A DNA stretch of 64,000 nt, from assembly GCA_964447105.1 (NCBI GenBank), contig CAYURH010000001.1:3139-67138 (forward strand). The letters run 5' to 3'. Shown in pieces: positions 27,323-51,572 of this stretch (position 1 is its first letter; every line of letters begins with the position of its first letter). Source of the stretch: an uncultured Candidatus Saccharibacteria bacterium. Lineage in GTDB: Bacteria; Patescibacteriota; Saccharimonadia; Saccharimonadales; EFPC-124. The translations under genes were made by a program, and so were the position numbers. The notes below the pieces were generated by a model. That model was not told the DNA's origin. It saw nothing but the letters and a program-made list of their open reading frames with translations, and ran no database searches.

Positions 27323-27362
27323 ATTCCCCGGTAAACCTCAGGGATTGAAAGGAGCGGGACAC

Positions 27363-29341: not shown

Positions 29342-29444
29342 CAACCGCCCACAGAGGGGCGTCGCCATACGCGCGACGCCCCTCTAGAATAGACTGAAAT
29401 TATATACCATGATATTATAACCACGCGCAAAATCACCACTACGA

Positions 29445-30158: not shown

Positions 30159-30166
30159 CGCACCCA

Positions 30167-30203
30167 CAGGCCCGAGCCGGGAACACTCCCGCGCTCGGGC
30201 CTG
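30167..30203. terminator. bidirectional GC-rich hairpin terminator
   Basis: CAGGCCCGAGC-N15-GCTCGGGCCTG, a perfect 11-bp stem between convergent genes. Confidence 0.55.
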
Positions 30204-30218
30204 GGCGTACAACAAAAC

Positions 30219-31208
30219 TTATTGTGCTGGAACTGGTTGGTACTGGCTATTCAAACTCTGATATAGATTATTTTGCGCTGCTGCTTCGTTATTGCGCGTG
30301 GCCACCAGCGCGTTGTACTGAGTTACTAAATCACGCGTCTTGATAGCAAGAGAATTATACGCATTTACTTGCGCGTTGTAGCCAGGTACAGCCTGATTGT
30401 ATGCGGCCACGTCTGACTGGCGTAATTGATCCAATTCGCTCGACCGCTGCTCAAGCGACTTCTTGCGTTCGTCGAGTTGAGTATAGTTAGTGTCGATCTG
30501 CTGTTTGATACTCGCCAACTGCTTATCATACGCCGCTATCCGTTCCTGGGACGCCGTAAAAATGGCGCGATAGGCTTGCGCATAGGCTACTACTTTGCTG
30601 CGATCGCTAAAATACTGACCGTAGTATTGCTCGAGCTCCGGGTCGAGCCCACTGTATTCGGTGCCGATGATGGAATGCATCTCGTTGAGTAAATCATCGG
30701 GTTCAGTACGACTATAAAGGGCGACAAGTTCATTTAGGTGGTCGTCGCGGATTTTGCCCAGCTGATCTTGTAGCAAGCCATTGACCCTACTCCGCGTTTC
30801 GCCGTCGAGCCGTTCATACGCAGCGTGAAGCATTTCGTGCGCTGCCGTCACCTCTTTGACACCGGCGAGCTGCGGGTTAACAACGTCAAAAATATAAATA
30901 TGCTGCGTCACATAACACCCCAGCACAATGGTTTGCTCACCCGTGCTGCTGCAGCTTTGATTAAATTTTTGGCTATCCTGCACTTGTGGGTCAGATACAT
31001 AAAACATATCGCGGCCCCGCCCAGTCATGCTCGTATTGTTTGCTAGTTGCAGCGCGGCCGCCGACGGCTTGTATTGCAGCAGCGCCCACCAATCCAATAC
31101 GGCCTGTTTGTTGAGCACTACCCACACTGCGCCAGCAATCAAAGCCAGGCTAACACCCAGGTTCACAATCCCCCAACCAACAGACCAACGCGAGCGAGTA
31201 ATAGGCAT
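30219..31208 (-). CDS. membrane-anchored putative zinc metallopeptidase (HExxH) with C-terminal coiled-coil, Q/N/Y-rich
   Basis: N-in TM anchor (RSRWSVGWGIVNLGVSLALIAGAVWVV), an HEMLH motif (VTAAHEMLHAAYERL), and a long heptad-like C-terminus. GC content is near the backbone level. Confidence 0.5.
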   Translation of the reverse strand: MPITRSRWSVGWGIVNLGVSLALIAGAVWVVLNKQAVLDWWALLQYKPSAAALQLANNTSMTGRGRDMFYVSDPQVQDSQKFNQSCSSTGEQTIVLGCYVTQHIYIFDVVNPQLAGVKEVTAAHEMLHAAYERLDGETRSRVNGLLQDQLGKIRDDHLNELVALYSRTEPDDLLNEMHSIIGTEYSGLDPELEQYYGQYFSDRSKVVAYAQAYRAIFTASQERIAAYDKQLASIKQQIDTNYTQLDERKKSLEQRSSELDQLRQSDVAAYNQAVPGYNAQVNAYNSLAIKTRDLVTQYNALVATRNNEAAAQNNLYQSLNSQYQPVPAQ

Positions 31209-31294
31209 TAGTTTTATTGTATCGCAGGTTTGACGTGATACAAATTTTAAATTATAGTATGCATTACGCTCAACGCTCATGAGAGGAAAATCGT

Positions 31295-31963
31295 ATGGAC
31301 GGGATACCGGGTTCGCTGCTCATCGGCGCGCTTGCAGTCATCATGCTGTCCGTGGTTTACGTCGGCTATCGCCGGCACGCAGCACGGAGGCGAAAAGGCC
31401 GTCAGCTGGCCCAGAAGTATCTGAATCGGCTCGTGGCCGACGCCAGCAAAGGCAAAGAGTACGCCCTCGACGAACTACGCCACGGCGCTAATGTCCACGA
31501 GCTGTTCATCAAGTTCGACACCGAGGAACGGCGTCTAGCAGCAATCGAGCAGGGCGAGCGAGTCCTGGCCGAGTACACGCCGCACGGCCACTCCTTGGTT
31601 GTGCTATTTAGCCGCTGGATGGACCCAGAGAGAGGCGGCTTCAACGCAGAGATGGAGGCGTGCTTGGAATTCTTCGCAGCGTACGACTCGCTGAAGTACT
31701 CCAAGCCACTGGCCTGTTCGAACATCGGCCTCACCCACGACGAGCTGATCATGAGCTTCAACAGCGCCGTGCGCACCACGTTCGCTGCCTACCTGGGTCT
31801 CGCCCGTACCAAGCGTGGTGACGAGCCGCGATTCCGGGCCGCATTGGACCTACTCAGTCAGGCCAACACCAGCTTCGACCTCAAGACCATCGTGGTCGAG
31901 CGGCTGGAACTACCGGACGACTGGGACGAGCTGTGCCTCCGGTACGGTGCGAACGAGCTGTGA
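31295..31963 (+). CDS. high-GC hypothetical protein with N-terminal membrane anchor, island family member 4
   Basis: LLIGALAVIMLSVVYVGY followed by RRHAARRRKGRQ. GAGAGGAAA RBS and promoter TTGACG-17 nt-TATAGT. Confidence 0.55.
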   Translation: MDGIPGSLLIGALAVIMLSVVYVGYRRHAARRRKGRQLAQKYLNRLVADASKGKEYALDELRHGANVHELFIKFDTEERRLAAIEQGERVLAEYTPHGHSLVVLFSRWMDPERGGFNAEMEACLEFFAAYDSLKYSKPLACSNIGLTHDELIMSFNSAVRTTFAAYLGLARTKRGDEPRFRAALDLLSQANTSFDLKTIVVERLELPDDWDELCLRYGANEL

Positions 31964-31979
31964 GTTTGTGAGCGACGAC

Positions 31980-32011
31980 GGGTACCGGGCGCATCTCCGC
32001 GTCCGGTACCC
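31980..32011. terminator. bidirectional GC-rich hairpin terminator
   Basis: GGGTACCGG-N14-CCGGTACCC between member 4 and clpC. Confidence 0.55.
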
Positions 32012-32023
32012 CAAATAGTAGTA

Positions 32024-34504
32024 TTATTCGCTTTTCAGACTGTAGGTGAGTTCACCTTTGCGTGCGCTCACCGCTATCACACTGCCTTTGGTATAGCGGC
32101 CTTCTAGCAAACCACTGGCGATTTCGTCTTCGACAGTATCTTGTAGCACGCGGCGCAGAGGACGCACTCCATTGTGAGCATCGTAACCTTGGTCGAGCAA
32201 TATTTTGCGAGCTTTGGCATCCACATCCACGGCTACACGTTGGCGATAGAGTCGCTTGCCCAGTTTGGCTAGCTCTACGTCCAAAATCTTGCGGACTTCG
32301 GTTTTGGTGAGCGCACGGAATACCAGAATCTTGTCGAGGCGGTTGATGAGCTCGGGGCGCATCATGCGCTTCAGATCCTCTTTGGCCACTTCTTCGTTCT
32401 GTTCGTGCACGTTTTGGAGTTCGTCCAAATCTTTTTTGGTCTGGGCGCGGAAACCCAAACTCGCTTCACGCTGCATTTTCTCGGCACCCAAATTGCTCGT
32501 AAGAATGATGATGGTATTGGTAAAATCTACTTTACGACCTTTGGCGTCGGTCAGACAGCCATCTTCCATGATTTGTAGCAGCACGTTGAAAATGTCTGGG
32601 TGGGCTTTTTCGATTTCATCGAACAGTACCAGACTATAGGGTTGACGCCGAACTTTTTCGGTGAGCTGCCCGGCGTCTTCGTAACCCACATAGCCGGCTG
32701 GTGCGCCCACCAAACGAGCAGCAGTGTGACGTTCGGCAAATTCGCTCATGTCGATTTTGATCAGTGCGCCCGCGGAGCCAAATAGTTCACGCGCGAGCAC
32801 CCGAGCTAGCTCAGTTTTACCCACACCAGTGGGGCCCATGAACATAAACGAACCAATTGGCCGCTTAGACTGACCAATGCCCGAACGGTTACGCCGAATA
32901 GCCCGCGACACAGCCGCGATAGCATCTTGCTGACCAATGATAGATTTGCCCAAATGTTTTTCCATGTTCAACAGATACGTCGCTTCGGATTTGATCACGC
33001 GTTCTACCGGCACACCGGTCATCATAGCTATCGTTCGAGTTACATCGTCGGCGGTGACAATGAGTTTTTTGCCTTTTTTGGTATCGGCACGCAATTCGCT
33101 AATTTTGGCGGTGATCTGGCTCATACGCGTTTTGTAGTGGGCTGCGCGTTCGTAGTCTTGCGCTTCTACAGCTTCTTCCATGTGGTGTGTCACGCCTTTG
33201 AGTTCACGATTGAGCCGACGGACTTCCACAGGTGCTTTGCCACGATCCACCTTGACTTGTGCTGCAGTTTCGTCCAACACATCGATGGCTTTGTCGGGCA
33301 TGAAACGGTCATTAATATACCGTTTGGCCAAGTGGGCTATGTCCGTCAACACTTCGTCTTCCACACTCACCCCGTGGTGTGATTCGTAGCGATGTTTCAG
33401 ACCTTTCAAAATAGCCACCGTGTCTTTGGTAGTAGGTTCGGGCACCATCACTGTCTGGAAACGACGCTCCAGAGCGGTGTCTTTTTCGATATGTTTACGA
33501 TATTCATCCAATGTGGTGGCGCCAATCAAGCGCAGCTGACCCCGTGCGAGCGCCGGTTTGAGCATGTTGGCCGCATCCATAGCGCCTTCGGCAGCACCAG
33601 CACCCACAAGCAAATGCAACTCATCGATAAATACGATCACATTTTTGTCGTTCACCAGCGTTTCGATCAGCTTCTTGAGCCGTTCTTCGAACTCACCGCG
33701 ATATTTGGTCCCCGCGATCATCCCCGCCAGGTCGAGCACAATGAGCCGCTTATCGAGCAGGTGCTCGGGCACATCTTCGATCGCAATTCGCTGCGCCAGA
33801 CCTTCGACAATAGCGGTCTTACCCACACCTGGTTCACCCAGCAGCACAGGATTATTTTTGGTGCGACGGCCAAGAACAGTGATAATGCGTTTGATTTGTT
33901 CATCGCGCCCCACTACCGGGTCTAGCTCGTTGGCACGTGCTTTGGCTGTAAGATCAATGCCAAAATAGTCCAAAATCGTTTGGTTTTTGTTGCGACGTGG
34001 CGCGGACTGTGTGGTATTGGCGCCGGGTTCGTCGTCTTGGCGCTGGTTGTTTAAATATTGCTCCAGCTCGTCCGTCAATTGGTCGACATCGACGTTCATG
34101 TCGCGCAATAATACGGTGGCGCGAGCGTTTTTTTGGGTCAGTATGCCGTAGAGCATATGCTCGGTACCGCAATAATCTTGGTTGAATTCTTGGGCGATGT
34201 CCCAGCTGAGTTTAAGCGTGAGTTTGGCGGTTTCACTCAAGCCTTTGGCGCCGACGCTCACTACCAACGCACGCGGCGTCAGATTGAGCGCCAACCGAGC
34301 GCGATCAAGCGTGACACCCATGTTGCTCAGCAGCTGTGACGCGACAGCGCCGTCTTGGCTCAATATACCCAGCAAAATATGTTCTGTGCCAATGTAGGCC
34401 GAACCAAGGGAACGAGCGATCCCGTTGGCATATTGCAAGCTCGAGCGAGCGTTGTCGGTGAGATGATTCACAAATTCCAGAAAGTCATCCTGAGACGGTA
34501 TCAT
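32024..34504 (-). CDS. clpC: ATP-dependent Clp protease ATP-binding subunit ClpC-like (class I Clp/Hsp100)
   Basis: Two Clp_N repeats and two AAA+ modules ([16 protein letters not shown]), 826 aa. Confidence 0.9.
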
Positions 34505-34552
34505 ATGTTTATTGTACCTCCAGCGCGATTGTCATAAATTTAGTATAAAAAA

Positions 34553-34579
34553 TTAGCACTCGTTGTGCAAGAGTGCTAA
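34553..34579. promoter_or_regulatory. CIRCE element (HrcA operator)
   Basis: TTAGCACTC-gttgtgcaa-GAGTGCTAA is a perfect match to the consensus TTAGCACTC-N9-GAGTGCTAA. It lies about 50 nt upstream of the clpC start codon. Confidence 0.6.
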
Positions 34580-34608
34580 TGCAAAAATCGTGCTACACTT
34601 TAATTGTC

Positions 34609-35151
34609 ATGGCCCAAAAGAAAAAAATATTCGCCATACGTCGTTCGACTATTATTTACAGCACCATTGTAATTGGCGCACTAATAGCGGCCCTTATATT
34701 TGGTAATATCAGACACTCCCTACAAGACCAGACTTTTAATAACCTACCAGCATGTAGCGGTAACACTACAACATCGTGCAAGCGAATAGTAAAAGTAACA
34801 GCGGATGAGGTCAATCCAAATTATGAAAATTTCTTCATCGATCCCGGCTGGCGCTTCCAAAGAAGTTATATGACTCGCATGGTTCTCGACACGCCTTTTG
34901 GGGAAGAGACCATTCTGACCGAACAGCGCTTTTACAACCTGCACTCAGGCGAGACATTCTATGCTTACGCCAACGACAATGACGTCATCGCCATAGAAGC
35001 GCCCGACGGTATCTATATTCTTCACAAGGTAGACCCACTTTATAACTGGCTACCGTCTCTGATACCATTTGCACTTCTCCTAGTCTCTTGGGGTATCTTT
35101 TGGATTTGGCGTCGAGCCTCACCCCAAAAAGTCACCACGTATAAAATATAA
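34609..35151 (+). CDS. hypothetical membrane protein (2 TM)
   Basis: Start at MAQKKK, preceded by an extended -10 (TGCTACACT). Low GC. Confidence 0.4.
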   Translation: MAQKKKIFAIRRSTIIYSTIVIGALIAALIFGNIRHSLQDQTFNNLPACSGNTTTSCKRIVKVTADEVNPNYENFFIDPGWRFQRSYMTRMVLDTPFGEETILTEQRFYNLHSGETFYAYANDNDVIAIEAPDGIYILHKVDPLYNWLPSLIPFALLLVSWGIFWIWRRASPQKVTTYKI

Positions 35152-35193
35152 AACTACCCGGAAGTCCGAGTAGTTTTATGCGTCTTAGCAGAT

Positions 35194-36354
35194 CTATTTT
35201 TCGTCGCTTGTTTCCTCGATAGCGGCGAGGAGCGAGTCTTCAATATTTTTCTTGGGTTTTGGTTTGCTTGCTGCAGCGTGATCGCCAGCGGCGACAACAG
35301 TGTTCGCGCTACCGTCTGCAGCTTCAATGTCGAGCTCGTACCCAGTCAGACGGCTGGCTAGGCGTACGTTTTGACCGCCACGGCCAATAGCGATACTGAG
35401 TTGGTCTGAAGCTACTTTTACTCGAGCGCGTTTGGCTTCTTCGTCGATGGTAATGCGTTGCACTTCGGCAGGGCTGAGCGCATTGGTAATGAACACGTTG
35501 GGGTCGCTACTGAACGTTACGATATCCACTTTTTCTTGGTCGCCGATTTCGTTCATCACGGCTTGCACACGCGTACCATGACCACCCACAAACGTGCCTA
35601 CTGGGTCTACACCTGGCACAGTGCTGTGTACGGCGATTTTGGTGCGCTTGCCGGCTTCGCGAGCAATAGCTTTGATTTCGACCGCGCCGCTGTCCATTTC
35701 GGGCACTTCTTGGCGGAACAGGTATTCAATAAATGGTTCGTTGGCGCGGCTTAGGATAAGCTGTGGCCCGCGAGTACCGCGTTCGACATCTTTCAAAAAA
35801 ACTTTCACACGTGAGCCAATGCTGTAGTATTCGCCCGGGATCTGTTCGCTTTGCGGGATGATACCGCCGGCTTTGCCCAGTTCCACGCGAACCACACGGG
35901 GCTCGATGCGCTGCACGGTACCAGTGATAACGGTGCCGATTTTGTCGGCGTATTCGTCCATCACTACTTCTCGTTCAGCTTCGCGCAGTTTCTGCAGGAT
36001 TACTTGTTTGGCAGTTTGAGCAGCCACGCGGCCAAACACCGTAGGTTTGTCGGTAATTTCTACGATGTCGCCAACAACAGCGCCTTTTTTGATTTTTTGT
36101 GCGTCAGCCACGCTTATTTCGATGGCGTCGTCGACTACGTCTTCTACCACTTCTTTGCTCACGTAGACAGTGACCGTACCTGAGTTGCCATTTAGTTTGG
36201 CGCGGACTTCTTGTTCGCGGTCACCAAAATCGCGGCGATAGGCAGCAGCGATGGCTTGCTCGATAATTTCGTGCACCACGTCTTCTGGTAAATTTTTTTC
36301 TTCGGCAATTTGGCGAACTGATAGCGCCAATTGTTTGATATTGATATCGTGCAT
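35194..36354 (-). CDS. nusA: transcription termination/antitermination factor NusA
   Basis: N-terminal domain, S1 and KH domains (LSIAIGRGGQNVRLASRLTG), and an AAGGAG RBS. Confidence 0.95.
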   Translation of the reverse strand: MHDINIKQLALSVRQIAEEKNLPEDVVHEIIEQAIAAAYRRDFGDREQEVRAKLNGNSGTVTVYVSKEVVEDVVDDAIEISVADAQKIKKGAVVGDIVEITDKPTVFGRVAAQTAKQVILQKLREAEREVVMDEYADKIGTVITGTVQRIEPRVVRVELGKAGGIIPQSEQIPGEYYSIGSRVKVFLKDVERGTRGPQLILSRANEPFIEYLFRQEVPEMDSGAVEIKAIAREAGKRTKIAVHSTVPGVDPVGTFVGGHGTRVQAVMNEIGDQEKVDIVTFSSDPNVFITNALSPAEVQRITIDEEAKRARVKVASDQLSIAIGRGGQNVRLASRLTGYELDIEAADGSANTVVAAGDHAAASKPKPKKNIEDSLLAAIEETSDEK

Positions 36355-36424
36355 AGATAGTAGCTCCTTTTATGCAAAAATCCGACCTGCCGGCCGGATG
36401 AGTACATATAGATCTTACCAAACC

Positions 36425-37243
36425 CTAATTCGATTGTAAAGTATCCTCTCGACTCGCAGCAAACACCGGTAGCTCACGAGCCAATTTTTCATTACTCCGC
36501 GCTTCGGTCTCGTTAATGTCCATGCGGTGAAAGAGTGTGGCGACACGTTGTGGCATGTTTCTATTTAACCCGATACTTGTGACTGTGCCCGCCACCGCTG
36601 CAACGCCCATGCCTATGAGTGCTATGATTTGCGCATGCGGTAAGTGCTCGATCATAAGTCCGGGCAAACTATCTGGTCGAACTGCGATCCCAATTTCGGC
36701 TCCCAAATTCGCTGCACTCCCGGCCACCAATCCTGCTCGTGCAACGCGCGTGCCTATTTTAACGTGACGTGGATTATTGTAATCGAACTGCGAGGGTTTA
36801 TATCGCCCGGTCGCAAGCTGCTGGATATGCGTTAGCTCATGATACAAGGATCGGTCAACTTGGTCAGCGCTCCAGAGCGACCCGTCGGGGTTACGAACAT
36901 TCAAAGCGAGCACTCGTCTAAAATAAGTCTGATTATTGTTTTCGTCGTCGCTCAAAATAAAACCCTCACGCAATACAGCACCACTCCACAATAAGCCCGT
37001 GTCCTTGCTAGGAACGGGGATGCTATCTCCCAGAACAACCAACGTATTATCGATTTCTTCTTCGTCAATGCCCACCAAACCCATAGCGGCGCGAACGCGC
37101 GCCGCATCAAATGGATACCTCTCCGTAACCTCCACTGAAGGCTCACCATCCCAAATAATATGCAACCCAGGACGTTTATCGGCATCTTCATGCCCTTCTG
37201 GTAGGGCTATCTCCTGACTTGGCGCCAACTCATCGCTACCCAT
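36425..37243 (-). CDS. hypothetical protein with HExxH motif and C-terminal membrane segment
   Basis: LYHELTHIQQLATG (HExxH). C-terminal hydrophobic stretch IIALIGMGVAAVAGTV. Confidence 0.4.
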   Translation of the reverse strand: MGSDELAPSQEIALPEGHEDADKRPGLHIIWDGEPSVEVTERYPFDAARVRAAMGLVGIDEEEIDNTLVVLGDSIPVPSKDTGLLWSGAVLREGFILSDDENNNQTYFRRVLALNVRNPDGSLWSADQVDRSLYHELTHIQQLATGRYKPSQFDYNNPRHVKIGTRVARAGLVAGSAANLGAEIGIAVRPDSLPGLMIEHLPHAQIIALIGMGVAAVAGTVTSIGLNRNMPQRVATLFHRMDINETEARSNEKLARELPVFAASREDTLQSN

Positions 37244-37309
37244 GTTTCGTATTATAGCAACGCCTGCAGAATAATACCTCTAAAGCCCGTAACGTGGGCT
37301 AGCCGGCCC

Positions 37310-38200
37310 CTACCAGGGGCGTGGTGTTCGTACGCCAGACGGGCCGTACCATCGCCGGAAGGCCGCGTGGACAAAATCGTATTGCGCCTCACCCAGCACT
37401 GCACGCGCGTCACCTTCGGGTTGCGTGTAGTAGGTGTGAAAGCATTCCTTAAAAATGCCGACGGTGCCATGTGTCTCCAGCCAGTGCGTGCGCCAGGAAT
37501 CAATCATGGCGAAGCGAAACAGCACCTCGCCGATCTGGTGGATGATCGCCACCTTCACCCGTTCGGCAAACTCTGGTTCGGTGCAGTCGTACGGATCGAC
37601 ACGCAGCATTACCTGAGCCCTGGGCGTGGCATGTTCGCCCGGATGCTGCACGATATGGCTGCGAAGCGAATCGCCGGGCTGCACGCTGACATACGAAATA
37701 CCGGCAAACCTACGCACAAACCGATACGGTAGGTCTACCAAAATTCCCAGCATGACACCGAGCGCTAGATTGCCCCAGTCGTTCGGCACCATGTCGAACC
37801 CGCTGTACACCACAAAAAGCGCCGGCTTGGTGTAGTTCAGGTCGTCGAGGCGTTTCTCGACTTGAGCCAGGTCTTGCTCCAGATCTAGGCGTTCGGCACG
37901 TAGCGATTGGAGCGCCCGTTTGAGCGCTCCAGTCTGATGGCCGAGCGTACGGCTTGCCTCGGCATGTTCGTCGCTCTGCTCCTTGAGTGTGGCACTTTTG
38001 GCAGGATCGCGTTCGAGCTGCGCTTGCACGCTGAGCTCACGCGACGCTTCGGCCAGATCGTCGACTCGAGCTTGGAGCGGATCGATTTCTTGCTGAAGCC
38101 GGCGTTCGACCTCCACCATCTGGGGAGGGAGAGGGCGCATTCGCGCACGACGTCGTTTGAGGTCAACGACTTCGAACATCTGCCCTACCAATCCCTGCAT
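37310..38200 (-). CDS. high-GC hypothetical protein with N-terminal coiled-coil
   Basis: GGAGGTG RBS upstream of MQGLVGQ. High GC3. Confidence 0.45.
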   Translation of the reverse strand: MQGLVGQMFEVVDLKRRRARMRPLPPQMVEVERRLQQEIDPLQARVDDLAEASRELSVQAQLERDPAKSATLKEQSDEHAEASRTLGHQTGALKRALQSLRAERLDLEQDLAQVEKRLDDLNYTKPALFVVYSGFDMVPNDWGNLALGVMLGILVDLPYRFVRRFAGISYVSVQPGDSLRSHIVQHPGEHATPRAQVMLRVDPYDCTEPEFAERVKVAIIHQIGEVLFRFAMIDSWRTHWLETHGTVGIFKECFHTYYTQPEGDARAVLGEAQYDFVHAAFRRWYGPSGVRTPRPW

Positions 38201-38243
38201 GTTCACCTCCACAGTGTCTCGTCTCGGGCAAACCCATCATAGC

Positions 38244-38645
38244 ATGATAGTATGGATGATAATGATCTACATAGACGATGACCAATTCCGCCAAATGGTC
38301 GCAGACGCGATTGATGGCATCCCCGAAAAATATGGCGACAACATCCTAAATCTGGCTTTTGTCGTAGAAAACCACCCCAGCCCCGCCCAACGCGAACAGT
38401 TAAAACTGCGCAACGACCAATCACTATTTGGCCTGTACGAAGGCGTACCGCTGCCACAGCGCGGTGCTGGCTACAACCTAGTTTTGCCCGACAAAATCAC
38501 CGTCTTTCGCGACACAATTCTGCAATACGCACAGGATGAAGACCAAGTGCGCGAACTCCTCAAGCACACGCTATGGCATGAAGTGGCACACTACTACGGC
38601 CTCGACCACCAAGCCATCGACAAATTGCAAGACAAAGATAAATAA
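38244..38645 (+). CDS. zincin-like metallopeptidase family small protein (HExxH near C-terminus)
   Basis: LWHEVAHYYGLDH motif. Size and layout resemble small cytoplasmic Zn-peptidase-like proteins. The start is uncertain (ATGs at 38244, 38256 and 38262). Confidence 0.55.
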   Translation: MIVWMIMIYIDDDQFRQMVADAIDGIPEKYGDNILNLAFVVENHPSPAQREQLKLRNDQSLFGLYEGVPLPQRGAGYNLVLPDKITVFRDTILQYAQDEDQVRELLKHTLWHEVAHYYGLDHQAIDKLQDKDK

Positions 38646-38688
38646 TTATGTTATAATATCCGTGTAGTCCGCTACGAACGGAGTTTTC

Positions 38689-39381
38689 ATGAGCACCGAT
38701 AGCGAACGCGACCGCGCGTTCAAAAAGGCTCGCCGGACCATCGAACGACTCATGGGCGCAGCTGATCTGGACCGGGCCTATTCGCTCGCCAGACTGCTCG
38801 TCGTCAACCACGGCCAGCGCGCACAGTCGTGGTACCTGCTGGCGCTGATCTGCACCATGCAAGACAAGGAGCAGGAAGCGTCGACCACTCGCGACACCGC
38901 TGCGCTCTGTACCGACCACACCCCGTACACCGACGGTGACATGCGGCGCGACGTGCTGCTGGGATGGTTGGACTGGCGCAAGCCGGACCAGCGGTTCTGG
39001 CTGTTGCTCGCGGGCATCCGAAAGCTATGCGAGGGTGGTGACGAAGACCGTTCAAGCTACCTGGCCATGGTGGAGGGGCGGATCCGATACGCTGAAGGCG
39101 ATTTCATCGGCGCGAGCAGCGCCCTGTGGCTCGCCCACAGCAATCTGCAAAACTCGCAGTGGCGGTACGGCACATTGTTGCCGTACCTCAAGGCGCTGAT
39201 CATGGGTGGCACCACCTCACGGATCTTCCTGAACGAACTGTTCATCATGATCGTTGACGGTGCCGCCGAGTACGGCTCGCCGCGTGATATCCAGCGCGCC
39301 CGGCACTGCATACGCGGCAAGAGCGCGTGCAAGCGCGACGACCTGTGGCAGCGTATCACCGGCCGCCTGGGCTGGAACTGA
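38689..39381 (+). CDS. high-GC hypothetical protein
   Basis: 230 aa. Extended -10 (TGTTATAAT) and an ACGGAG RBS. Confidence 0.45.
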   Translation: MSTDSERDRAFKKARRTIERLMGAADLDRAYSLARLLVVNHGQRAQSWYLLALICTMQDKEQEASTTRDTAALCTDHTPYTDGDMRRDVLLGWLDWRKPDQRFWLLLAGIRKLCEGGDEDRSSYLAMVEGRIRYAEGDFIGASSALWLAHSNLQNSQWRYGTLLPYLKALIMGGTTSRIFLNELFIMIVDGAAEYGSPRDIQRARHCIRGKSACKRDDLWQRITGRLGWN

Positions 39382-39433
39382 CGCCGCAACACCCGCCCGC
39401 GCTCACACAGAGCGCGGGCGGGCGACGAAACAC

Positions 39434-39775
39434 TTATCCTATATCTGACACCCACTGGGTGACCTGCGGCGGATTGCCAGTCAGTTCGATAGCGCTCAAA
39501 CGGCAATCACCGTCAGCCGTTTGCGAAGCGCGCCAAAATTCGGCCGCCACGTGCATTTGCTGCAATTTACGCGCCGTGATGTAGTCGAAACCGCTCCCCT
39601 GCGTATCGGTGCTGCGATATTTAACTTCCACCAAATACGTCGTACCTGATTTTTGAGCCACAATGTCTATTTCACACCAGCGTGTGCGCCAGTTTTGCTG
39701 GACGATTTTGTAACCTTGTTTTTTGAGGTAATGCGCTGCTGCCGTTTCGGCCGCACGACCGACAAGTGTGCTCAC
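39434..39775 (-). CDS. YraN-family endonuclease (UPF0102)
   Basis: 113 aa. GRAAETAAAHYLKKQGYKIVQQNWRTRWCEIDIV is typical of the YraN family. Confidence 0.75.
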   Translation of the reverse strand: MSTLVGRAAETAAAHYLKKQGYKIVQQNWRTRWCEIDIVAQKSGTTYLVEVKYRSTDTQGSGFDYITARKLQQMHVAAEFWRASQTADGDCRLSAIELTGNPPQVTQWVSDIG

Positions 39776-40332
39776 TGTGCCAGGGCCCTAAGCGGCGCGT
39801 AGCTCATGCGGTGCTGCAAACACGGACCCAGAGTCGCCAATGCCGCTTTGTGCACCGCCGTGCCATAGCCCACATGGCTGGCAAACCCGTAGCCACCAAA
39901 CACACCATCAATCTGATGCATATAGCTATCGCGCGCCACTTTAGCCACAATACTGGCGGCCATTACTGCGGGCACGTTGGTGTCGGCTTTGATGACAGCC
40001 ACGGCGCGCGGGTCTTCAATGAGTTTTAGGTGGCCATCGATGATAATTGCCGTAATAAGTTCATTTGGTATCTGCGCGAGTGCGCGCTCGGCTGATAGTT
40101 TAAGGGCTTTTGTAACGCCCAGCTGATCGATCTCAGTGGGCGATGCCCACCCTATGCCAATCGCTTCGGCTTGTTGCTGAATCTTCAATGCCATAACTTC
40201 TCGCTGTTCTGCTCGCAACACCTTGCTATCGGCCAGCCCGCGCCTCGATGCACTGTCGCCCCAAGCTACCGCCGCCACGCACAGTGGTCCAGCCCAACTA
40301 CCGCGCCCAACTTCATCTATCCCCACAATCAT
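39772..40332 (-). CDS. rnhB: ribonuclease HII
   Basis: MIVGIDEVGRGSWAGPL, with start at the internal ATG (40330-40332). The yraN-rnhB adjacency is conserved. Confidence 0.9.
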   Translation of the reverse strand: MIVGIDEVGRGSWAGPLCVAAVAWGDSASRRGLADSKVLRAEQREVMALKIQQQAEAIGIGWASPTEIDQLGVTKALKLSAERALAQIPNELITAIIIDGHLKLIEDPRAVAVIKADTNVPAVMAASIVAKVARDSYMHQIDGVFGGYGFASHVGYGTAVHKAALATLGPCLQHRMSYAPLRALAQ

Positions 40333-40474
40333 ATGGATAGTATAGCAAATAGTAGGTATGATAATGATATTTCTTGCGAGGTTACGGGCCGTTGGGACCG
40401 GGCCTCGCACTCTCAGAAAAATAATCACTTCTTTGGTGGGGTCCGCCTGCGCGAGCCCCACCGTCACGTCGCTA

Positions 40475-40867
40475 CTACTCGGCCTCGTCCTTGGCGGGCA
40501 AAGGGTACAGCTGCCGGAACGAGCTGTATGTGGGGTTTATGCCACGTAGTTTGGGCGGTATGACGTGCCCGACGAACGAACGGCCATACCCCGAGTACGA
40601 CACGAAGCTGAGTCCTTGCGCGCAAAAGTCAAAGATCAGCAGTTCGTTTTCGCCGATATACAGCGTGAACTCGCCGTCGCCATGGGGCAAATACAGTGTG
40701 CCCACGCCAGTAGGCCACCCCAGATGTTCCAGGGTATCCATCACTTCTCTGTCGAATTTGGCGTTTACTTCGGCGCCGTGGAACCGCCGCAACGCCGTTT
40801 CGGCGACTTTACAGAGCACCGCACCCGCAACCACCAATCCGGCCACGGTGAACAGCGTTTTCTTCAT
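40475..40867 (-). CDS. secreted hypothetical protein
   Basis: Signal peptide MKKTLFTVAGLVVAGAVLC. Confidence 0.4.
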   Translation of the reverse strand: MKKTLFTVAGLVVAGAVLCKVAETALRRFHGAEVNAKFDREVMDTLEHLGWPTGVGTLYLPHGDGEFTLYIGENELLIFDFCAQGLSFVSYSGYGRSFVGHVIPPKLRGINPTYSSFRQLYPLPAKDEAE

Positions 40868-40973
40868 GTTCACGACAGAACCTCCCGATTGTCGTCGCGA
40901 CACTACTGACTATAGACCACCCGCGCAAACAAAAACAGCCGCAGATCACGCGGCTGTTTGAGTGGAACGACGG

Positions 40974-41462
40974 TTATTTTTTGTCGCCAGCTGCCGCTTT
41001 GAGCTCGGCAGCTTCTTCTTTGGCGTATTGGTCGTGTTTTTCGGCCAAATCTTCTTTGAGCTGTTCGATTTCTTCTTCGGCAGCTTTGTTGGCGCGGTTT
41101 ACTTTGTCGCGGTCAAAACCCACGCTCTGCAGGCGAGCGGATTTACCACTGCGTTCACGCAAGAAGGTAAGATATTTGCGGCGGACTTTGCTCCGTTTGG
41201 TCACTTCTACTTTAAGTACCAACGGGCTGTGGATCAGATAGGTTTTTTCCACGCCTACACCGCTGGCGATACGGCGAACCGTAAAGCTACTGGTGTGGCT
41301 ATTTTTGCGATCGGTGCGGATAACGACACCTTCGAAGATCTGGATGCGTTCTTTGTTGCCTTCTTTAATTTTTTGGTGCACACGAACAGTGTCACCGGTA
41401 CGCACGTCGACAACTTTGGTTTTGCGCTGCGCATCAGCGACAGCTTGGATCAAATGAAACAT
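40974..41462 (-). CDS. rplS: 50S ribosomal protein L19 with ~45-aa K/E-rich C-terminal extension
   Basis: RTGDTVRVHQKIKEGNKERIQIFEGVVI is the L19 core. The 162-aa length exceeds the typical roughly 115 aa. Confidence 0.9.
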   Translation of the reverse strand: MFHLIQAVADAQRKTKVVDVRTGDTVRVHQKIKEGNKERIQIFEGVVIRTDRKNSHTSSFTVRRIASGVGVEKTYLIHSPLVLKVEVTKRSKVRRKYLTFLRERSGKSARLQSVGFDRDKVNRANKAAEEEIEQLKEDLAEKHDQYAKEEAAELKAAAGDKK

Positions 41463-41542
41463 GATACTCTAGACTCACTTTTTAACAATTACGATAATTG
41501 TAACACATCTGTTGCGCAAAGAAAAGTGGTAGAATAAACGTA

Positions 41543-41971
41543 ATGACCGCGCTCAACCACGCCCTCACTGGCGCTGCGATCGGCATGGCCGTGCAGCAAC
41601 CGCTACTAGTGATCCCGCTGGCGTTTGTGTCGCATTTTGTGCTGGATATCGTGCCGCATTTTGAACAGAAAAACTATACATTTGGCACCAAAAGCACCAT
41701 CATCACCCATGTCGTCGATGGGCTCCTTACACTCAGTGCGCTCGTGTTTCTAGGGTTTTTTGCGCCGCATCTTATGTTCCCCGCAGTACTTGGCGCGATA
41801 TTTGCCATGCTACCAGATGCGTTTTGGCTCCACTACTATACCCACGGGCGGCCTCAATATTGGTTTTATCGCTTTCATCAGAAAATCCAGTGGTTTGAAC
41901 GACCGCAGGGCATGTTGGTCGAAGTGAGTTACCTGGTATTTATTGGATTTGTAATCACGGCAATTCGGTGA
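41543..41971 (+). CDS. small polytopic membrane protein
   Basis: 142 aa with 4 TM helices. Confidence 0.45.
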   Translation: MTALNHALTGAAIGMAVQQPLLVIPLAFVSHFVLDIVPHFEQKNYTFGTKSTIITHVVDGLLTLSALVFLGFFAPHLMFPAVLGAIFAMLPDAFWLHYYTHGRPQYWFYRFHQKIQWFERPQGMLVEVSYLVFIGFVITAIR

Positions 41972-42086
41972 TAACTACTTGTTATATTACATAATATATG
42001 ATATAGTATGTTAGCCGCACGGTGATTTGTATCGTGCGGTTTCGACAGAGCAATTTTCGAGCAACATCGAACACAGGGAGCTTCCC

Positions 42087-42575
42087 TTGACTATCGAATA
42101 TCCGCTGGGGATCGGGCTGTTGACCGTTGAAGGCAACGGCACCATCATCATCGGCAACTGGATGGCCGACCCCGACGGGCACCTCTCGGTACCCCGGTAC
42201 CACGGCCTGAGGTCCGAACGGGACCTCCCGCTGGCGCAGCGCACGACATGGCGCTGCGCCTCCAACCGCGATCTGGTTAAGGCCGCCGTGGAATCGGCAG
42301 GCAAAGACCAGCCGGTCATCGTGCACCTGGGCGAAGACACCTTCGCTATCCTGTGCACGGACTCGTATTCCATCCGCGCTCACCACCTGACGCCCGCCAG
42401 GGTCAAGCAGGGGGTCATCGTGGATGGTCTCGTGATCGAAGTCGACGTAAAGGTCTCGGATGACATGCTGCGGGCTATCCCGCCATTCTCCGAGATCCAC
42501 GTCCACTCCAGCAACAAGTGGCTCGGTGCCATCGCGGCCGAAGTCAAGCCGTCCAAGGCCGAATCGGCCCACTGA
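42087..42575 (+). CDS. high-GC hypothetical protein (TTG start inferred)
   Basis: ACAGGGAG RBS upstream of a TTG. A GC-rich hairpin terminator follows. Confidence 0.4.
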   Translation: MTIEYPLGIGLLTVEGNGTIIIGNWMADPDGHLSVPRYHGLRSERDLPLAQRTTWRCASNRDLVKAAVESAGKDQPVIVHLGEDTFAILCTDSYSIRAHHLTPARVKQGVIVDGLVIEVDVKVSDDMLRAIPPFSEIHVHSSNKWLGAIAAEVKPSKAESAH

Positions 42576-42581
42576 CACCAA

Positions 42582-42616
42582 CACCGCGGGGTGGCCATCA
42601 CGGCCGCCCCGCGGTG
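42582..42616 (+). terminator. GC-rich hairpin terminator without U-tract
   Basis: CACCGCGGGG-N15-CCCCGCGGTG, a perfect 10-bp stem. Confidence 0.45.
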
Positions 42617-42733
42617 CCGCCGATATTGCTCTGTCGGTAACTGAAATTATTATAAAATACTTACCAAACAATATTGTATTTTAATCGCAAATAGTCTATG
42701 GTGGCTGCAGCGCACATACAAAGGAGGTACCTG

Positions 42734-43144
42734 GTGAGTGAAGCAAGCTGCTTCGAACTCTCAGAAGATGGTCGTACCATCGATATCTTCGGATGGAAAG
42801 GCCACGTCCACTCGAGCGCACGGCTGAATGTGGAAATCCGCGACGCCGTGGCAGCTGGACTCCACTCTGTTGAGAAGCCCGGTGGCGACCTACGATTCGT
42901 TGTGGCGCCTGCCGATGCCGCACAGATGTTCGACTGCGGGTTCCTCAACCCGAAGAACCTGGCGCGCGCCACCCCGTTCGTTCAGGGTGATGTCCGCGGC
43001 TTCGACATCGCCCTGAACTCCAGCGACGAACTCGATCCGCTAGCCCGTAGCTGGCCGAGCTACGGCCTGACCACCATTCGTGTGATCAGCCACGGCAAAG
43101 GCCGGATGGTCGAGGTCATCGAATCGGCGGCAGGAGCCGCCTAG
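42734..43144 (+). CDS. high-GC hypothetical protein
   Basis: AAGGAGG RBS followed by a GTG start. Promoter TTGTAT-17 nt-TATGGT upstream. Confidence 0.45.
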   Translation: MSEASCFELSEDGRTIDIFGWKGHVHSSARLNVEIRDAVAAGLHSVEKPGGDLRFVVAPADAAQMFDCGFLNPKNLARATPFVQGDVRGFDIALNSSDELDPLARSWPSYGLTTIRVISHGKGRMVEVIESAAGAA

Positions 43145-43152
43145 CGCACTTT

Positions 43153-43187
43153 CACCGAGCGGGTGGGCACACACCGCCCGCTCGGTG
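43153..43187. terminator. bidirectional GC-rich hairpin
   Basis: CACCGAGCGGG-N13-CCCGCTCGGTG between convergent genes. Confidence 0.5.
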
Positions 43188-43190
43188 GAG

Positions 43191-44813
43191 CTAAATGACT
43201 TTATTAACTTCTTCTATAGTAGTCAGACCTTGGCAAGCTTTGAGTACGCCATCTTGGAGCATGGTAACCATGCCTTCTTTAATGGCCGTTTGTTCAATAG
43301 CTTCAACATTGGCATGTGCCACATCGCCGCGCAAAAATCCCTGGATGGCGTCGCTAACGACCATTTGTTCCATGACCACCATACGGCCTTTGTAGCCGAA
43401 TGGATTGGCTTCACTCGCACCGGGTTTGTATAATGTCAGATTTTGGAGATCGGGCTTGGGGGTATTCGGAGGGAGCGTGTTTAACACCGATTCGATGTAC
43501 TTTTTGGTGGCATCGTCGGGCTGGTACGGTTGGCGTGTGGCTTCGTCGAGCTGACGCACAAGACGCTGGCCAATCACCAACCGGATAGCGCTCGAAAATA
43601 TCGGATTCTGCCCAATCATATCTATAATGCGGCTAAAGGCTGCGGCTGCGCTGCTAGCGTGAAATGTGCTCAGCACCAGGTGACCGGTAATAGAAGCCTG
43701 GATGGCAGTACGCGCCGTGTCTACATCGCGGATTTCACCCACCATCACGATGTCAGGGTCGAGTCGCAGCACAGCCCGCAGCTTTTCGGCAAAACTATCA
43801 CCACCTTGAGTATTCACCGGAATCTGGCTCACACCAGGCACGGCCAACTCTACAGGGTCTTCGAGCGTCAAGATTTTGCGATCACTGGTATTGAGCGTTT
43901 GAATCATACTATAGAGCGTGGTGGATTTGCCCGAACCAGTGGGGCCCACTACCATTACCATGCCGTGCGGGTGTTCGATAATGTCGTTGATGTTGCGGCG
44001 CTGTTGTTCGGTGAGGCCCAGGTGGTCAAGGTCAAGAAGCTTGGGGTCGAAATTGAACAGGCGGATCACTACATCCTGCCCGTAGATCGTCGGCACAGTT
44101 TCTATGCGCATGTTCAGCATATGGTTCGTGCCGTCATCAGCACGGACATCTTGTTGCATGTGGCCAGTTTGAGCATCGGTAGCCGCAGTACTGATGTTGC
44201 CGCGCGTCGCGATACTGGCTAGCAACACACGATATTTATCTTTGGACAGCGCGGCCACGGGGTGCAGCGCACCGTCTACGCGAAACCTGATACGCACCGT
44301 GTCGAGCTGACTTTCCAGGTGGATGTCGCTGGCGCCCAGATGGTCGGCTTGGATGATAAGGTAGTTTAAAATGTCGTCGGAGCGTACGCCTTCGAGCGTT
44401 TGCGACACTACGGCGAGTGTTTGGCTATCACCTTCTTTGGCAATCTGCACGTCTTTGTACACTACTTTTTTGGGCGGGTCATAGCGCGACATGTATTCTT
44501 TGAAGCCCGAATCCGAGATCATGAGAAACTGCACAATCCGACCCACAAACCGCTCGCGTAGCTGGCGCAGCGTAGGTTGCGGCGTGCTGACAGTAATCCC
44601 AAACACGAGCGGCGCGTCTTGAAGCCCATCGCTCAGTGGCACCATTTTGCCAGCGTACATTTCGGGCACCGTCAAGATATCTTGGTATAACGGGCCGCGC
44701 AGTGCCACGTCACGCGTATCAAAATACTGCAGCCCCAACAAGCCTGCGCGGCGCTGGGTGTTCTGTTCATCTTCGTTACGAAACTTAGCGGTCTGATCTT
44801 GGATGGCCGGCAT
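43191..44813 (-). CDS. type IV pilus assembly / type II secretion ATPase (PilB/GspE family)
   Basis: Walker A GPTGSGKST, Asp box, His box, and a GspE N-terminal domain. Confidence 0.85.
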   Translation of the reverse strand: MPAIQDQTAKFRNEDEQNTQRRAGLLGLQYFDTRDVALRGPLYQDILTVPEMYAGKMVPLSDGLQDAPLVFGITVSTPQPTLRQLRERFVGRIVQFLMISDSGFKEYMSRYDPPKKVVYKDVQIAKEGDSQTLAVVSQTLEGVRSDDILNYLIIQADHLGASDIHLESQLDTVRIRFRVDGALHPVAALSKDKYRVLLASIATRGNISTAATDAQTGHMQQDVRADDGTNHMLNMRIETVPTIYGQDVVIRLFNFDPKLLDLDHLGLTEQQRRNINDIIEHPHGMVMVVGPTGSGKSTTLYSMIQTLNTSDRKILTLEDPVELAVPGVSQIPVNTQGGDSFAEKLRAVLRLDPDIVMVGEIRDVDTARTAIQASITGHLVLSTFHASSAAAAFSRIIDMIGQNPIFSSAIRLVIGQRLVRQLDEATRQPYQPDDATKKYIESVLNTLPPNTPKPDLQNLTLYKPGASEANPFGYKGRMVVMEQMVVSDAIQGFLRGDVAHANVEAIEQTAIKEGMVTMLQDGVLKACQGLTTIEEVNKVI

Positions 44814-44873: not shown

Positions 44874-45002
44874 ATGAATAGTACGAAAGCACCAAAGAAA
44901 AACGAAAAACTAACCGCCAAACAAAAGGCGCAAATCGACAGCGCCGTTAATAAAGTAGTTAAAAAATACCACAAAACTCTTCAGTTGCTCGCTAAAACAT
45001 GA
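44874..45002 (+). CDS. 42-aa basic mini-ORF MNSTKAPKKNEKLTAKQKAQIDSAVNKVVKKYHKTLQLLAKT, candidate Doc antitoxin (Phd-like role)
   Basis: Not in the ORF track (under 60 aa). Its stop overlaps the Doc start codon. Coordinates may be off by 1 nt. Confidence 0.35.
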   Translation: MNSTKAPKKNEKLTAKQKAQIDSAVNKVVKKYHKTLQLLAKT

Positions 45003-45421
45003 AGCAGATAACGCTCCCCGAGGCAGAATATATTGCTCACACTTTAGCTAAGCGTCTAATGGATTTTGATGAGCCAGTGCCCCCCTTTGCAACACGCTTC
45101 CCGGGCAGGCTTGAAAGCTGCTTGGCACAACCATTCAGCACTTTTGACGGTAAGGCGTTATACCCCACACTGCCAGAAAAAGCCGCTTTACTTTTTTATT
45201 TGGTTATAAAGAATCATCCCTTTGAAAATGGCAATAAGCGACTAGCCGTTACGATCACGCTCGTTTTTCTTGATAAAAATCACAAGTGGGTTCGAGTACC
45301 GGCAAAAGATATGTATGAACTCGCTTGTATTGTGGCCACAAGCCGGCCGAACGAAAAAGACACTGTGCTTGAAAGGCTTACCCAGATATTTGGCAGCCTA
45401 CTGATCGACAGTGATGAATAG
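44999..45421 (+). CDS. doc: Doc (death-on-curing) toxin, Fic family
   Basis: Fic/Doc motif HPFENGNKR, 140 aa. Confidence 0.85.
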   Translation: MKQITLPEAEYIAHTLAKRLMDFDEPVPPFATRFPGRLESCLAQPFSTFDGKALYPTLPEKAALLFYLVIKNHPFENGNKRLAVTITLVFLDKNHKWVRVPAKDMYELACIVATSRPNEKDTVLERLTQIFGSLLIDSDE

Positions 45422-50646: not shown

Positions 50647-50766
50647 GGCAGCCCGCGGTAGTTGTATAAAAAACAAAAATCCTGCCACTTGGCGAATATA
50701 TAAGTTCACACTATTATTCGCTCATGGGCGCCGCCGCGTGTGCTGGCGGCGCCCATGATTCTGCAC

Positions 50767-51308: not shown

Positions 51309-51572
51309 CTATTTGTGCTGTGTTTCCTGTATAGAACGTTGCACCGAATCCACCACATCGGTCAAAAACGGCACATAATGAAAAACGCTCAACAGCCACA
51401 ACAATGCCGCCACCACCAGTGTGCCGCCAACCAAACTACCAAGCCCAAAAAATATACCTCGGATAAAATTCATCCAATAGATTTGGTGACGCCGGTTGTA
51501 ATAGTCGTGAAAAAATTCTTCAAATACAGCGTTGCTGGCGCTTTGTTGCTCACCCGTGCGTTTTTGTGCCAT
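51309..51572 (-). CDS. small membrane protein
   Basis: 87 aa, 1-2 TM helices. Confidence 0.4.
   Translation of the reverse strand: MAQKRTGEQQSASNAVFEEFFHDYYNRRHQIYWMNFIRGIFFGLGSLVGGTLVVAALLWLLSVFHYVPFLTDVVDSVQRSIQETQHK

Follow-up and report, generated by a model that had tools for sequence, protein, structure and literature searches.

GC-rich, moron-like accessory gene cassettes among the housekeeping genes of a Saccharibacteria chromosome

Fourteen GC-rich open reading frames (ORFs), compositionally foreign to their surroundings, lie scattered among the housekeeping genes of a 64-kb stretch of soil-type Saccharibacteria (Saccharimonadales) chromosome (assembly GCA_964447105.1, contig CAYURH010000001.1, positions 3,139 to 67,138; hereafter, the window). 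Each of these ORFs appears to be packaged as its own transcription unit, here called a cassette. In such a unit, AT-rich DNA carrying a predicted near-consensus σ70-type promoter is followed by a leader of 30-80 nt with a Shine-Dalgarno sequence, by an ORF rich in G and C at third codon positions (GC3), and by a long GC hairpin that often seems to close a convergent backbone gene as well. In our assessment, the cassettes are moderately likely to represent a lineage-restricted, fast-evolving pool of accessory genes, many of them for envelope proteins, drawn from a GC-rich source that the searches did not identify. An earlier sequence-only reading of this DNA, made without database searches, had described recurring GC-rich genes and proposed their recurrent capture from a high-GC host; its descriptive part was largely borne out by the present analysis, and its explanation was not.

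The window and its backbone

The overall GC of the window is 0.524. Backbone genes recognized by Pfam encode HisRS, a sigma factor, a histidine kinase, RecG, TyrRS, a transglycosylase-domain protein (PBP-like), RadA, ClpC, NusA, RNase HII, L19, PilB, DnaE, GatCAB and UvrB. With PilB (43191-44813, minus strand) as the query, 53 loci were retrieved from species-representative genomes, nearly all labelled Saccharibacteria, the closest of which (L001) encodes a PilB 74% identical to that of the window. Metagenomes yielded 76 more loci, the best being 80% identical on a contig of only 3.4 kb. The comparison set comprised 130 related Saccharibacteria loci, which are labelled L001, L002 and so on, and the gene order from gatB to clpC is kept in L001, L003, L004 and L006. 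The 87-aa ORF at 51309-51572 (minus strand) is 53% identical to L001 3255-3539 and, judging from this similarity, should count as backbone.

Composition of the GC-rich class

Genes of the window were divided into a backbone group of 42, which match Pfam or have homologues in related loci, and a second group of 23 that do neither. The backbone genes have a GC of 0.512±0.030 (range 0.453-0.575) and a GC3 of 0.549±0.049. Inside the second group, 14 ORFs stand apart as a class of their own, having GC 0.58-0.64 and GC3 0.66-0.84, corresponding to GC3 z-scores of 2.3-5.8 against the backbone. These per-gene values confirm the earlier description of GC-rich genes recurring in a backbone of about 50% GC, and the neighbours that it named (RNase HII, L19, PilB, DnaE, GatCAB, UvrB, RadA and ClpC) are as stated; the ORFs on its list are outliers, but one further member of the class, 40475-40867 on the minus strand, had escaped it. 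GC at second codon positions (GC2) is 0.41-0.56 in the 14 ORFs and in every case lies well under GC3, a codon periodicity which indicates that they are real coding sequences.

Codon usage differs from that of the backbone as well. The preferred codon flips from AAA (0.81) in the backbone to AAG (0.68) in the GC-rich class, from GAA (0.76) to GAG (0.56), and from TTT (0.66) to TTC (0.83), and the class also favours ATC (0.76) and CTG (0.50). Measured by symmetrised dinucleotide relative abundance, the pooled class (8.8 kb) lies at a distance of 110 from the backbone (34.9 kb), compared with 31±9 (maximum 61) for a null of backbone subsets made up of 14 pieces of ~530 nt (~7.4 kb). These data support the conclusion that the GC-rich class is compositionally foreign to the backbone beyond its raw GC. 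Other orphan genes of the window are ordinary or AT-rich, including 34573-35151 (GC 0.44), 36425-37243 (0.51) and 10773-11402 (0.46).

Among annotated genes, only a P450 gene (6134-7324; GC 0.575, GC3 0.69) comes near the values of the GC-rich class. This very divergent P450-like gene belongs to a cluster at 4718-7324, unusual in a reduced epibiont, that also contains DUF1761, a SnoaL-like cyclase and a MarR regulator. It was considered as a possible actinobacterial import and set aside as uninformative, being ~25% identical to plasmid-borne P450s and matching solved P450 structures weakly (best E 3e-14). A Fic/DOC-domain gene (44999-45421, GC 0.456), located between pilB and a conserved gene at 45411, has no counterpart in any related locus and is an AT-rich accessory gene beside GC-rich ones.

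Anatomy of the cassettes

The cassettes and their predicted elements are as follows.

27294-30205, plus strand: three GC-rich cassettes in a row (ORFs 27345-28286, 28409-29341 and 29445-30158), each product with an N-terminal transmembrane segment, a basic stretch and then a domain without match
27294-27322, plus strand: predicted promoter TTGACT-17-TATAAT of the 27345 cassette
28301-28330, 29353-29385 and 30163-30205: hairpins of the three-cassette row
31230-32011, plus strand: GC-rich cassette with predicted promoter 31230-31258, ORF 31295-31963 (222 aa; GC 0.61, GC3 0.78; N-terminal transmembrane segment) and hairpin 31980-32011, common to clpC
37310-38200, minus strand: GC-rich orphan ORF of 296 aa (GC 0.59, GC3 0.66), N-terminally coiled-coil-like, with a C-terminal domain without match
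38629-38657, plus strand: predicted promoter AAGACA-17-TATAAT with extended -10 (TGn), 10/12 consensus positions, 32 nt before the ATG at 38689
38689-39381, plus strand: GC-rich orphan ORF of 230 aa, predicted all-helical (GC 0.63, GC3 0.81)
39392-39422: 13-bp GC hairpin (-32.9 kcal/mol) between the convergent 38689-39381 and UPF0102 gene
40435-40462: hairpin downstream of 40475-40867
40475-40867, minus strand: GC-rich orphan ORF of 130 aa with an N-terminal hydrophobic anchor (GC 0.58, GC3 0.71)
41979-42007, plus strand: promoter-like site TTGTTA-17-TATAGT (with TG), 9/12, before 42087-42575
42087-42575, plus strand: GC-rich orphan ORF of 162 aa, TTG start after AGGGAG (GC 0.63, GC3 0.83; singleton cluster P0012)
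42582-42616: 15-bp GC hairpin (-36.5 kcal/mol) right behind the stop of 42087-42575
42734-43144, plus strand: GC-rich orphan ORF of 136 aa, GTG start after AGGAGG (GC 0.62, GC3 0.71; singleton cluster P0013)
43153-43187: GC hairpin (-34.5 kcal/mol) common to the convergent 42734-43144 and pilB
50723-51228, minus strand: GC-rich cassette with ORF 50767-51228 (153 aa; GC 0.64, GC3 0.73; N-terminus signal-peptide or lipoprotein-like) and hairpin 50723-50757
57561-58123, plus strand: GC-rich ORF 57561-58091 (176 aa from the first ATG; GC 0.61, GC3 0.71) and hairpin 58100-58123
60188-60749, plus strand: GC-rich cassette with predicted promoter TTGACC-17-TATAAT (60188-60216), ORF 60262-60705 (147 aa; GC 0.62, GC3 0.84; N-terminal transmembrane segment; singleton cluster P0004) and hairpin 60721-60749
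60778-62253, minus strand: tandem paralogous lipoprotein cassettes (ORFs 61581-62183 and 60820-61419)
62942-63459, plus strand: GC-rich unit with hairpin 63432-63459 at its end

Start codons given earlier for the focal region (37310-43190) are consistent with the Shine-Dalgarno motifs there and with the recorded products. The four ORFs in 27345-31963 have GC 0.59-0.63 and GC3 0.71-0.81, and no paralogy among their N-terminally anchored products is detectable by BLASTP. Overall, the translations show an N-terminal transmembrane anchor, signal-like segment or lipobox in nine of the 14 products. Two stretches that had been taken for single genes were revised. The GC-rich region 60820-62183 contains two tandem paralogues, and 62942-63429 is interrupted: a 76-codon GC3-rich ORF (62942-63172), whose 77-aa product is on record as P0016, is followed by in-frame stops and a frame change, so that the unit is either a decayed cassette or two small ORFs.

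The DNA is AT-rich over the 50-100 nt before the cassettes (GC 0.20-0.52) and GC-rich over the 60 nt behind them (0.43-0.72). The window has five 11/12 matches to TTGACA-N16-18-TATAAT, four of which sit 23-47 nt before GC-rich ORFs (27345, 60262, 61419 and 62183), and the 10/12 matches include those ahead of 31295 and 38689. A σ70 match of at least 10/12 within 110 nt upstream was found for seven of the 14 cassettes and for none of the 32 other genes that stand first in a transcription unit after a gap of at least 50 nt (Fisher p=6e-5). The consensus promoter reported earlier at 60188-60216 is present, and so is TGTTATAAT, at 38649-38657 instead of 38654-38662. The idea that imported genes were subsequently fitted with native promoters is not supported by these data, as the cassette promoters come closer to the σ70 consensus than the promoter of any backbone gene in the window. 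The cassette leaders have no Rfam match.

A GC stem of 11-16 bp, with a folding energy of -20 kcal/mol or stronger, lies within 60 nt downstream of 12 of the 14 ORFs, in agreement with the claim that GC-rich hairpins close these genes, and the median downstream folding energy is -30.2 kcal/mol for cassettes vs -12.7 kcal/mol (p=2e-6). Most of the cassette hairpins are missing a T-run, and their sequences are unrelated to one another. Four hairpins are common to a cassette and a convergent backbone gene, namely the gene at 30219-31280 (g30219), clpC, the UPF0102 gene and pilB; the hairpin at 39392-39422 is likely a bidirectional terminator. No repeat family or flanking direct repeat accompanies the cassettes in 27000-44000, and the sole tRNA of the window (14210-14293) adjoins none of them.

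Between 25000 and 64000, the backbone lies mostly on the minus strand and nine of the 14 GC-rich ORFs on the plus strand, the latter being typically convergent with a backbone gene and sharing a hairpin with it. A 20-nt motif, ATAGTAKGKATGATAATGAT, occurs twice with 90% identity, at 38247-38266 before gene 38280 and at 40349-40368 before rnhB, and may be a shared promoter or operator.

Variable slots between conserved genes

Five cassette slots fall between genes that are directly adjacent in relatives. The three-cassette row separates radA from g30219, and the cassette at 31230-32011 separates g30219 from clpC, both pairs being adjacent in L049 and L112. Likewise, 40475-40867 lies between rplS and rnhB and 50767-51228 between dnaE and the small conserved gene at 51309-51572, pairs that adjoin each other in L001, and 57561-58091 lies between uvrB and gatC, which are adjacent in L118 and L046.

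In the focal region, relatives carry other genes at the corresponding positions. After pilB, L001, L003, L004, L006 and L052 have a malic-enzyme-like gene, and in the UPF0102-nusA (or rnhB-nusA) slot the same five loci have an aminopeptidase-like gene of 848-996 aa. In L001, pilB abuts the malic-enzyme gene and a hairpin of the 43153-43187 type is missing. Comparison of window positions 42027-43190 and 36355-39433 with L001 11617-12750 and 14770-17316 revealed no remnant of either gene in the two focal slots, and the possibility that the cassettes are decayed ancestral genes was rejected for this reason. From the synteny, the focal slots are cases of gene replacement, not simple insertion.

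The slot that holds the GC-rich ORFs 37310 and 38689 is also occupied by two putative zinc metallopeptidase genes of ordinary GC, neither of which has a homologue in the 130 related loci. One (36425-37243) has an HExxH motif (HELTH) and hydrophobic C-terminal segments, and the other (38280-38645) matches Zincin_1 (PF06262).

The junctions around 42087-43144 are not a product of binning or assembly, since a contig of an independent Logan assembly of run SRR9179563 matches the window over 41352-44176 with 0 mismatches.

Homology searches

None of the 14 GC-rich ORFs has a Pfam match. Scans with PHROGs, PADLOC and NCBIfam, which covered nine of the 14, returned only weak coiled-coil-type matches for 37310-38212 and one marginal PHROGs hit for 28409-29341. 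The former, found below the cut-off with Pfam, PADLOC and NCBIfam and absent from PHROGs, are confined to the N-terminal part of the protein and are read as coiled-coil noise; 38689-39381 has no hit in any hidden Markov model (HMM) library scanned. When 37310-38212 and 38689-39381 were each searched as single queries against 5.8 billion proteins, only self matches were obtained (P0006 in the case of the former). By exact look-up, 10 GC-rich ORFs are singletons at 90% identity, as is the 62942-63172 product.

A tblastn search with the 14 concatenated proteins found nothing in 72,556 plasmids or 50,697 phage records, and the four focal proteins have no relative in the PDB. No relative of any cassette was found in the 130 Saccharibacteria loci, except for the lipoprotein pair, which matches L054. 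Pattern scans of metagenomes with the four focal ORFs and of IMG/VR with seven ORFs revealed no relatives, both being weak negatives, as such scans detect close relatives only.

A lipoprotein family with a homologue in another Saccharibacterium

The tandem ORFs 61581-62183 and 60820-61419 are paralogues with 47% identity, both with GC3 0.72-0.83, and each has its own predicted promoter (TTGACA-17-AATAAT at 62225-62253 and 61466-61494). Both units also have a lipobox and a TTG start, behind a conserved leader that contains a Shine-Dalgarno sequence, and end in hairpins (61538-61567 and 60778-60811). Searching a profile of the pair against 1.84 billion representatives yielded one real homologue, P0008 (E=3e-23); three hits to repeat proteins were taken as spurious. 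P0008 is a 207-aa lipoprotein encoded beside hisS in the Saccharibacteria metagenome-assembled genome (MAG) GCA_964436805.1 (locus L054), the HisS of which is 79% identical to that of the window. It is 32-35% identical to the pair. Read by eye, the lipobox with its Cys is present in all three proteins (...GATAGC, ...GVSGC and, in P0008, ...ALSAC), and both members of the pair carry a putative signal peptide that leads up to a lipobox and its invariant Cys, the signature of lipoproteins.

The gene for P0008 has GC 0.636 and GC3 0.84, with GC 0.52-0.53 in its neighbours hisS and rsmD, and is preceded by TTGACA-17-GATAAT; the promoter thus goes along with the family, being present in the duplicate and in L054. 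The only homologue found for this family accordingly belongs to the same lineage and has a similar composition (GC 0.64, GC3 0.84), an outcome that the sequence-only reading itself had named as counting against import from a high-GC host.

Next to the P0008 gene, L054 carries two further GC-rich membrane ORFs, of 138 aa (229-645; GC3 0.80) and 120 aa (8272-8634; GC3 0.88). A surface protein of 1720 aa (2982-8144; GC 0.586) is also encoded there and contains fn3, Big_7 and PKD domains.

Age and distribution within the clade

In the sister species L002 and L004, three GC-rich ORFs occupy the same slots; their products share 36-50% identity, compared with 83-91% for backbone proteins, and GC is 0.59-0.65 in both species. 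At four-fold sites of conserved residues, identity between L002 and L004 is 0.38-0.50 for the GC-rich pairs and 0.37-0.47 for PilB and DnaE, where saturation would give ~0.3. Since their four-fold identity is similar to that of the backbone, these GC-rich genes are about as old as the species split, and since their protein identity is lower, they evolve much faster at the protein level. Recent recurrent capture is not supported for genes that are syntenic in both species, have diverged at four-fold sites as far as the backbone and are still GC-rich.

A survey of 1615 ORFs from all loci, made with a crude longest-ORF caller and including some antisense frames, showed that 10.8% of the ORFs without homologues lie >0.06 GC above the local core, vs 0.3% of conserved ORFs. 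The GC-high ORFs are concentrated in the clade of the window (L002, L003, L004, L059 and L062-L064). In more distant loci, which include Nanosynbacter and oral taxa, accessory or non-conserved ORFs are AT-rich; oral taxa of this kind are in general reported to have Actinobacteria as hosts (PMC11659515). The excess over the local backbone is similar in size across genomes with a backbone GC from 0.44 to 0.55.

Origin of the cassettes

According to the reading that we favour, the units, which occupy variable slots among the conserved housekeeping genes of the Saccharimonadales chromosome, belong to an accessory pool that, as far as current databases show, is confined to this clade of Saccharibacteria and evolves far faster than the backbone at the protein level. 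Their products would probably vary the cell envelope of the epibiont, as suggested by the anchors, signal peptides and lipoboxes at the start of nine of the 14. The codon usage and dinucleotide signature suggest that the genes entered from, or circulate within, a GC-richer and so far unsampled gene pool. This distinct signature, together with the occurrence of GC-rich and AT-rich orphans in the same slots, favours import or circulation over a uniform intrinsic drift. In agreement with part of the earlier proposal, the composition is foreign and the slots hold other genes or nothing in relatives; a high-GC host as the source, and recent recurrent capture with native promoters fitted afterwards, were not supported.

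Several points weigh against this reading. The foreign origin is read from composition, no donor having been found, and a GC3 that stays high after synonymous turnover also fits a gene-specific equilibrium with an intrinsic cause. Five of the 14 products are without an export signal. Large protein databases were queried with three families only (37310-38212, 38689-39381 and the lipoprotein pair), and the homologue negatives for the other ORFs come from HMM libraries, plasmids, phages, the PDB and the 130 loci. The promoters and terminators are consensus and folding predictions, from which their functioning is inferred. The function of the cassette products stays at candidate level, with AlphaFold2 models of low confidence (predicted local distance difference test, pLDDT, 48.8 for 38689-39381 and 59.6 for the lipoprotein pair); a Foldseek search of the PDB with the model of the pair returned nothing below E=0.7.

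We regard it as unlikely that the cassettes are instead native, lineage-specific, fast-evolving genes whose high GC3 reflects a gene-specific equilibrium. Candidate causes would be relaxed selection for the A/T-ending codons of the backbone, with mutation biased towards GC, or else GC-biased gene conversion in loci that often recombine. High GC3 is indeed kept in paralogues with 47% identity and in orthologues with nearly saturated four-fold sites, the phenomenon is clade-wide with a similar excess over very different backbones, and the three searched families have no homologue outside the lineage. However, non-conserved orphans in the same slots are not GC-rich (34573-35151 and 36425-37243), the AT-richness of the upstream DNA speaks against unconstrained sequence drifting towards GC in general, the cassettes differ in dinucleotide signature as well, and in bacteria the reported effects of GC-biased gene conversion are far below +0.25 in GC3. 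Improbable to a greater degree is the proposal that the epibiont repeatedly takes up DNA from a high-GC actinobacterial host and that the captured genes then gain native AT-rich promoters. Actinobacteria are high-GC organisms with terminators reported as long GC hairpins without a U-tract, which the cassette hairpins resemble, and genomes of about 60-65% GC have codon preferences (AAG, GAG, TTC and CTG) like those of the cassettes, with their GC of 0.59-0.64 and GC3 of up to 0.84. Moreover, cultured Saccharibacteria live on Actinobacteria (PMC11659515), the window encodes PilB, and the four-fold data are compatible with a transfer long ago from a donor of very high GC3, with partial amelioration and fast protein divergence since then. 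Against this stand the searches, in which the closest homologues of the three families were not actinobacterial: 37310-38212 and 38689-39381 gave self matches, and the lipoprotein family has a single homologue, which is Saccharibacterial and itself GC-rich. In addition, none of the 14 ORFs has a plasmid or phage match, the GC-rich ORFs of L002 and L004 are syntenic and old, the promoter of the lipoprotein family is found again in front of the duplicate and in L054, and the non-conserved ORFs of distant loci that include oral taxa are AT-rich. Acquisition from a host would be tenable only if the transfer were ancient and the genes had since diverged rapidly, and the single family with a homologue contradicts it.

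Very unlikely, in our view, is an origin as remnants or cargo of Saccharibacteria phages or mobile elements, that is, as true morons left in the chromosome. The anatomy fits what defines a moron, namely a promoter and a terminator of its own, deviant GC and extra DNA relative to relatives (PMC3594210), but the phage searches returned one marginal PHROGs match, none among the phage records and none in IMG/VR for seven ORFs, and the neighbours encode no phage-type Pfam domain. There are also no flanking direct repeats and no adjacent tRNA, and the cassettes are scattered singly among housekeeping genes. An artefact, whether chimeric assembly, bin contamination or non-coding GC-rich spacers with open frames, is scarcely credible. 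The contig is metagenome-assembled, and GC-rich DNA does contain long chance ORFs on both strands, such as 61551-62222 on the plus strand; however, more than 10 separate units each lie within conserved synteny, an independent contig is identical over 41352-44176, the codon periodicity is strong, Shine-Dalgarno sequences precede the starts, and the lipoprotein family has a conserved paralogue and a homologue.

Implications

To the favoured reading of a clade-restricted accessory pool, a more far-reaching and rather improbable version can be added. Soil-clade Saccharibacteria might keep a dedicated pool of single-gene cassettes, each with a promoter and a hairpin, for fast-diversifying envelope proteins at the host interface. 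These cassettes might pass between epibionts (e.g., through natural transformation) and integrate in intergenic regions or at terminators by an undescribed mechanism, and their GC-rich codons might be actively maintained by selection or biased repair instead of being the fading mark of import.

Saccharibacteria are obligate epibionts with tiny genomes, in which this class of genes, clade-restricted, fast-evolving, with products often predicted to be surface-exposed, preceded by strong predicted promoters and recognisable by composition alone, supplies a defined set of candidates for host-interface or immunity genes. Where the hosts are high-GC, GC-rich DNA in an epibiont looks host-derived; as homology gives this no support here, host prediction from such genes is unsafe. 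Accessory genes are usually AT-rich, and accessory genes richer in GC than the core run against that pattern. Those that stay GC-richer over long divergence could serve to test ideas on amelioration and biased gene conversion in reduced genomes. What we rate as new is the presence, in a chromosome of the Candidate Phyla Radiation (CPR), of moron-like accessory units that exceed the core in GC, occur throughout the clade and evolve fast; the literature searched yielded no account of GC-rich cassettes in Saccharibacteria.

Comparison with known systems

In bacteria, ORFans and genes of recent acquisition typically have a higher AT content than the genome that carries them. Genomic islets and ORFans resemble the cassettes in their atypical composition, absence from close relatives, unassigned function and position at synteny breakpoints. 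The cassettes differ in being ~0.10 richer in GC (GC3 +0.2-0.3), clade-wide and, in sister species, as old as the backbone, with no integrase, tRNA or flanking repeat. Nor do they have the features of a genomic island, as the blocks consist of one to three genes, with no flanking repeats (27000-44000) and no adjacent tRNA.

Integron gene cassettes are likewise compact single-ORF units followed by a hairpin-forming sequence. The units described here differ in having their own predicted promoters, unrelated perfect GC stems that, by eye, are not of the imperfect attC type, and a scattered arrangement instead of an array beside an integrase gene; no integrase domain was found in the proteins scanned with Pfam.

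Published host-to-epibiont transfers rest on recognisable homologues in the donor group. The cassettes share with such cases the presence of compositionally deviant genes, read as imports, in a reduced epibiont genome, but in the searches made they have no donor homologue, and the only homologue is in another Saccharibacterium. Gene transfer from host to epibiont has been cited as a basis for host prediction in Saccharibacteria (PMC11659515) and has been proposed for the G6 clade and streptococci (PMC8386444).

The closest likeness is to phage morons, first described in HK97 and HK022, which carry their own promoter and terminator, have a GC unlike that of their neighbours and represent extra DNA relative to related genomes (PMC3594210). 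Like morons, the cassettes are single genes with their own, here predicted, promoter and terminator, have a deviant GC and lie between genes that are adjacent in relatives; moron products are also often membrane or surface proteins of accessory benefit. Unlike morons, the cassettes are chromosomal, located among radA, clpC, rplS, rnhB, pilB, dnaE, gatCAB and uvrB, with no phage relatives found, and in some slots an ancestral gene (malic enzyme or aminopeptidase) has been replaced, in contrast to simple addition. By analogy, the cassettes would be moron-like in their working while falling outside the class of phage morons.

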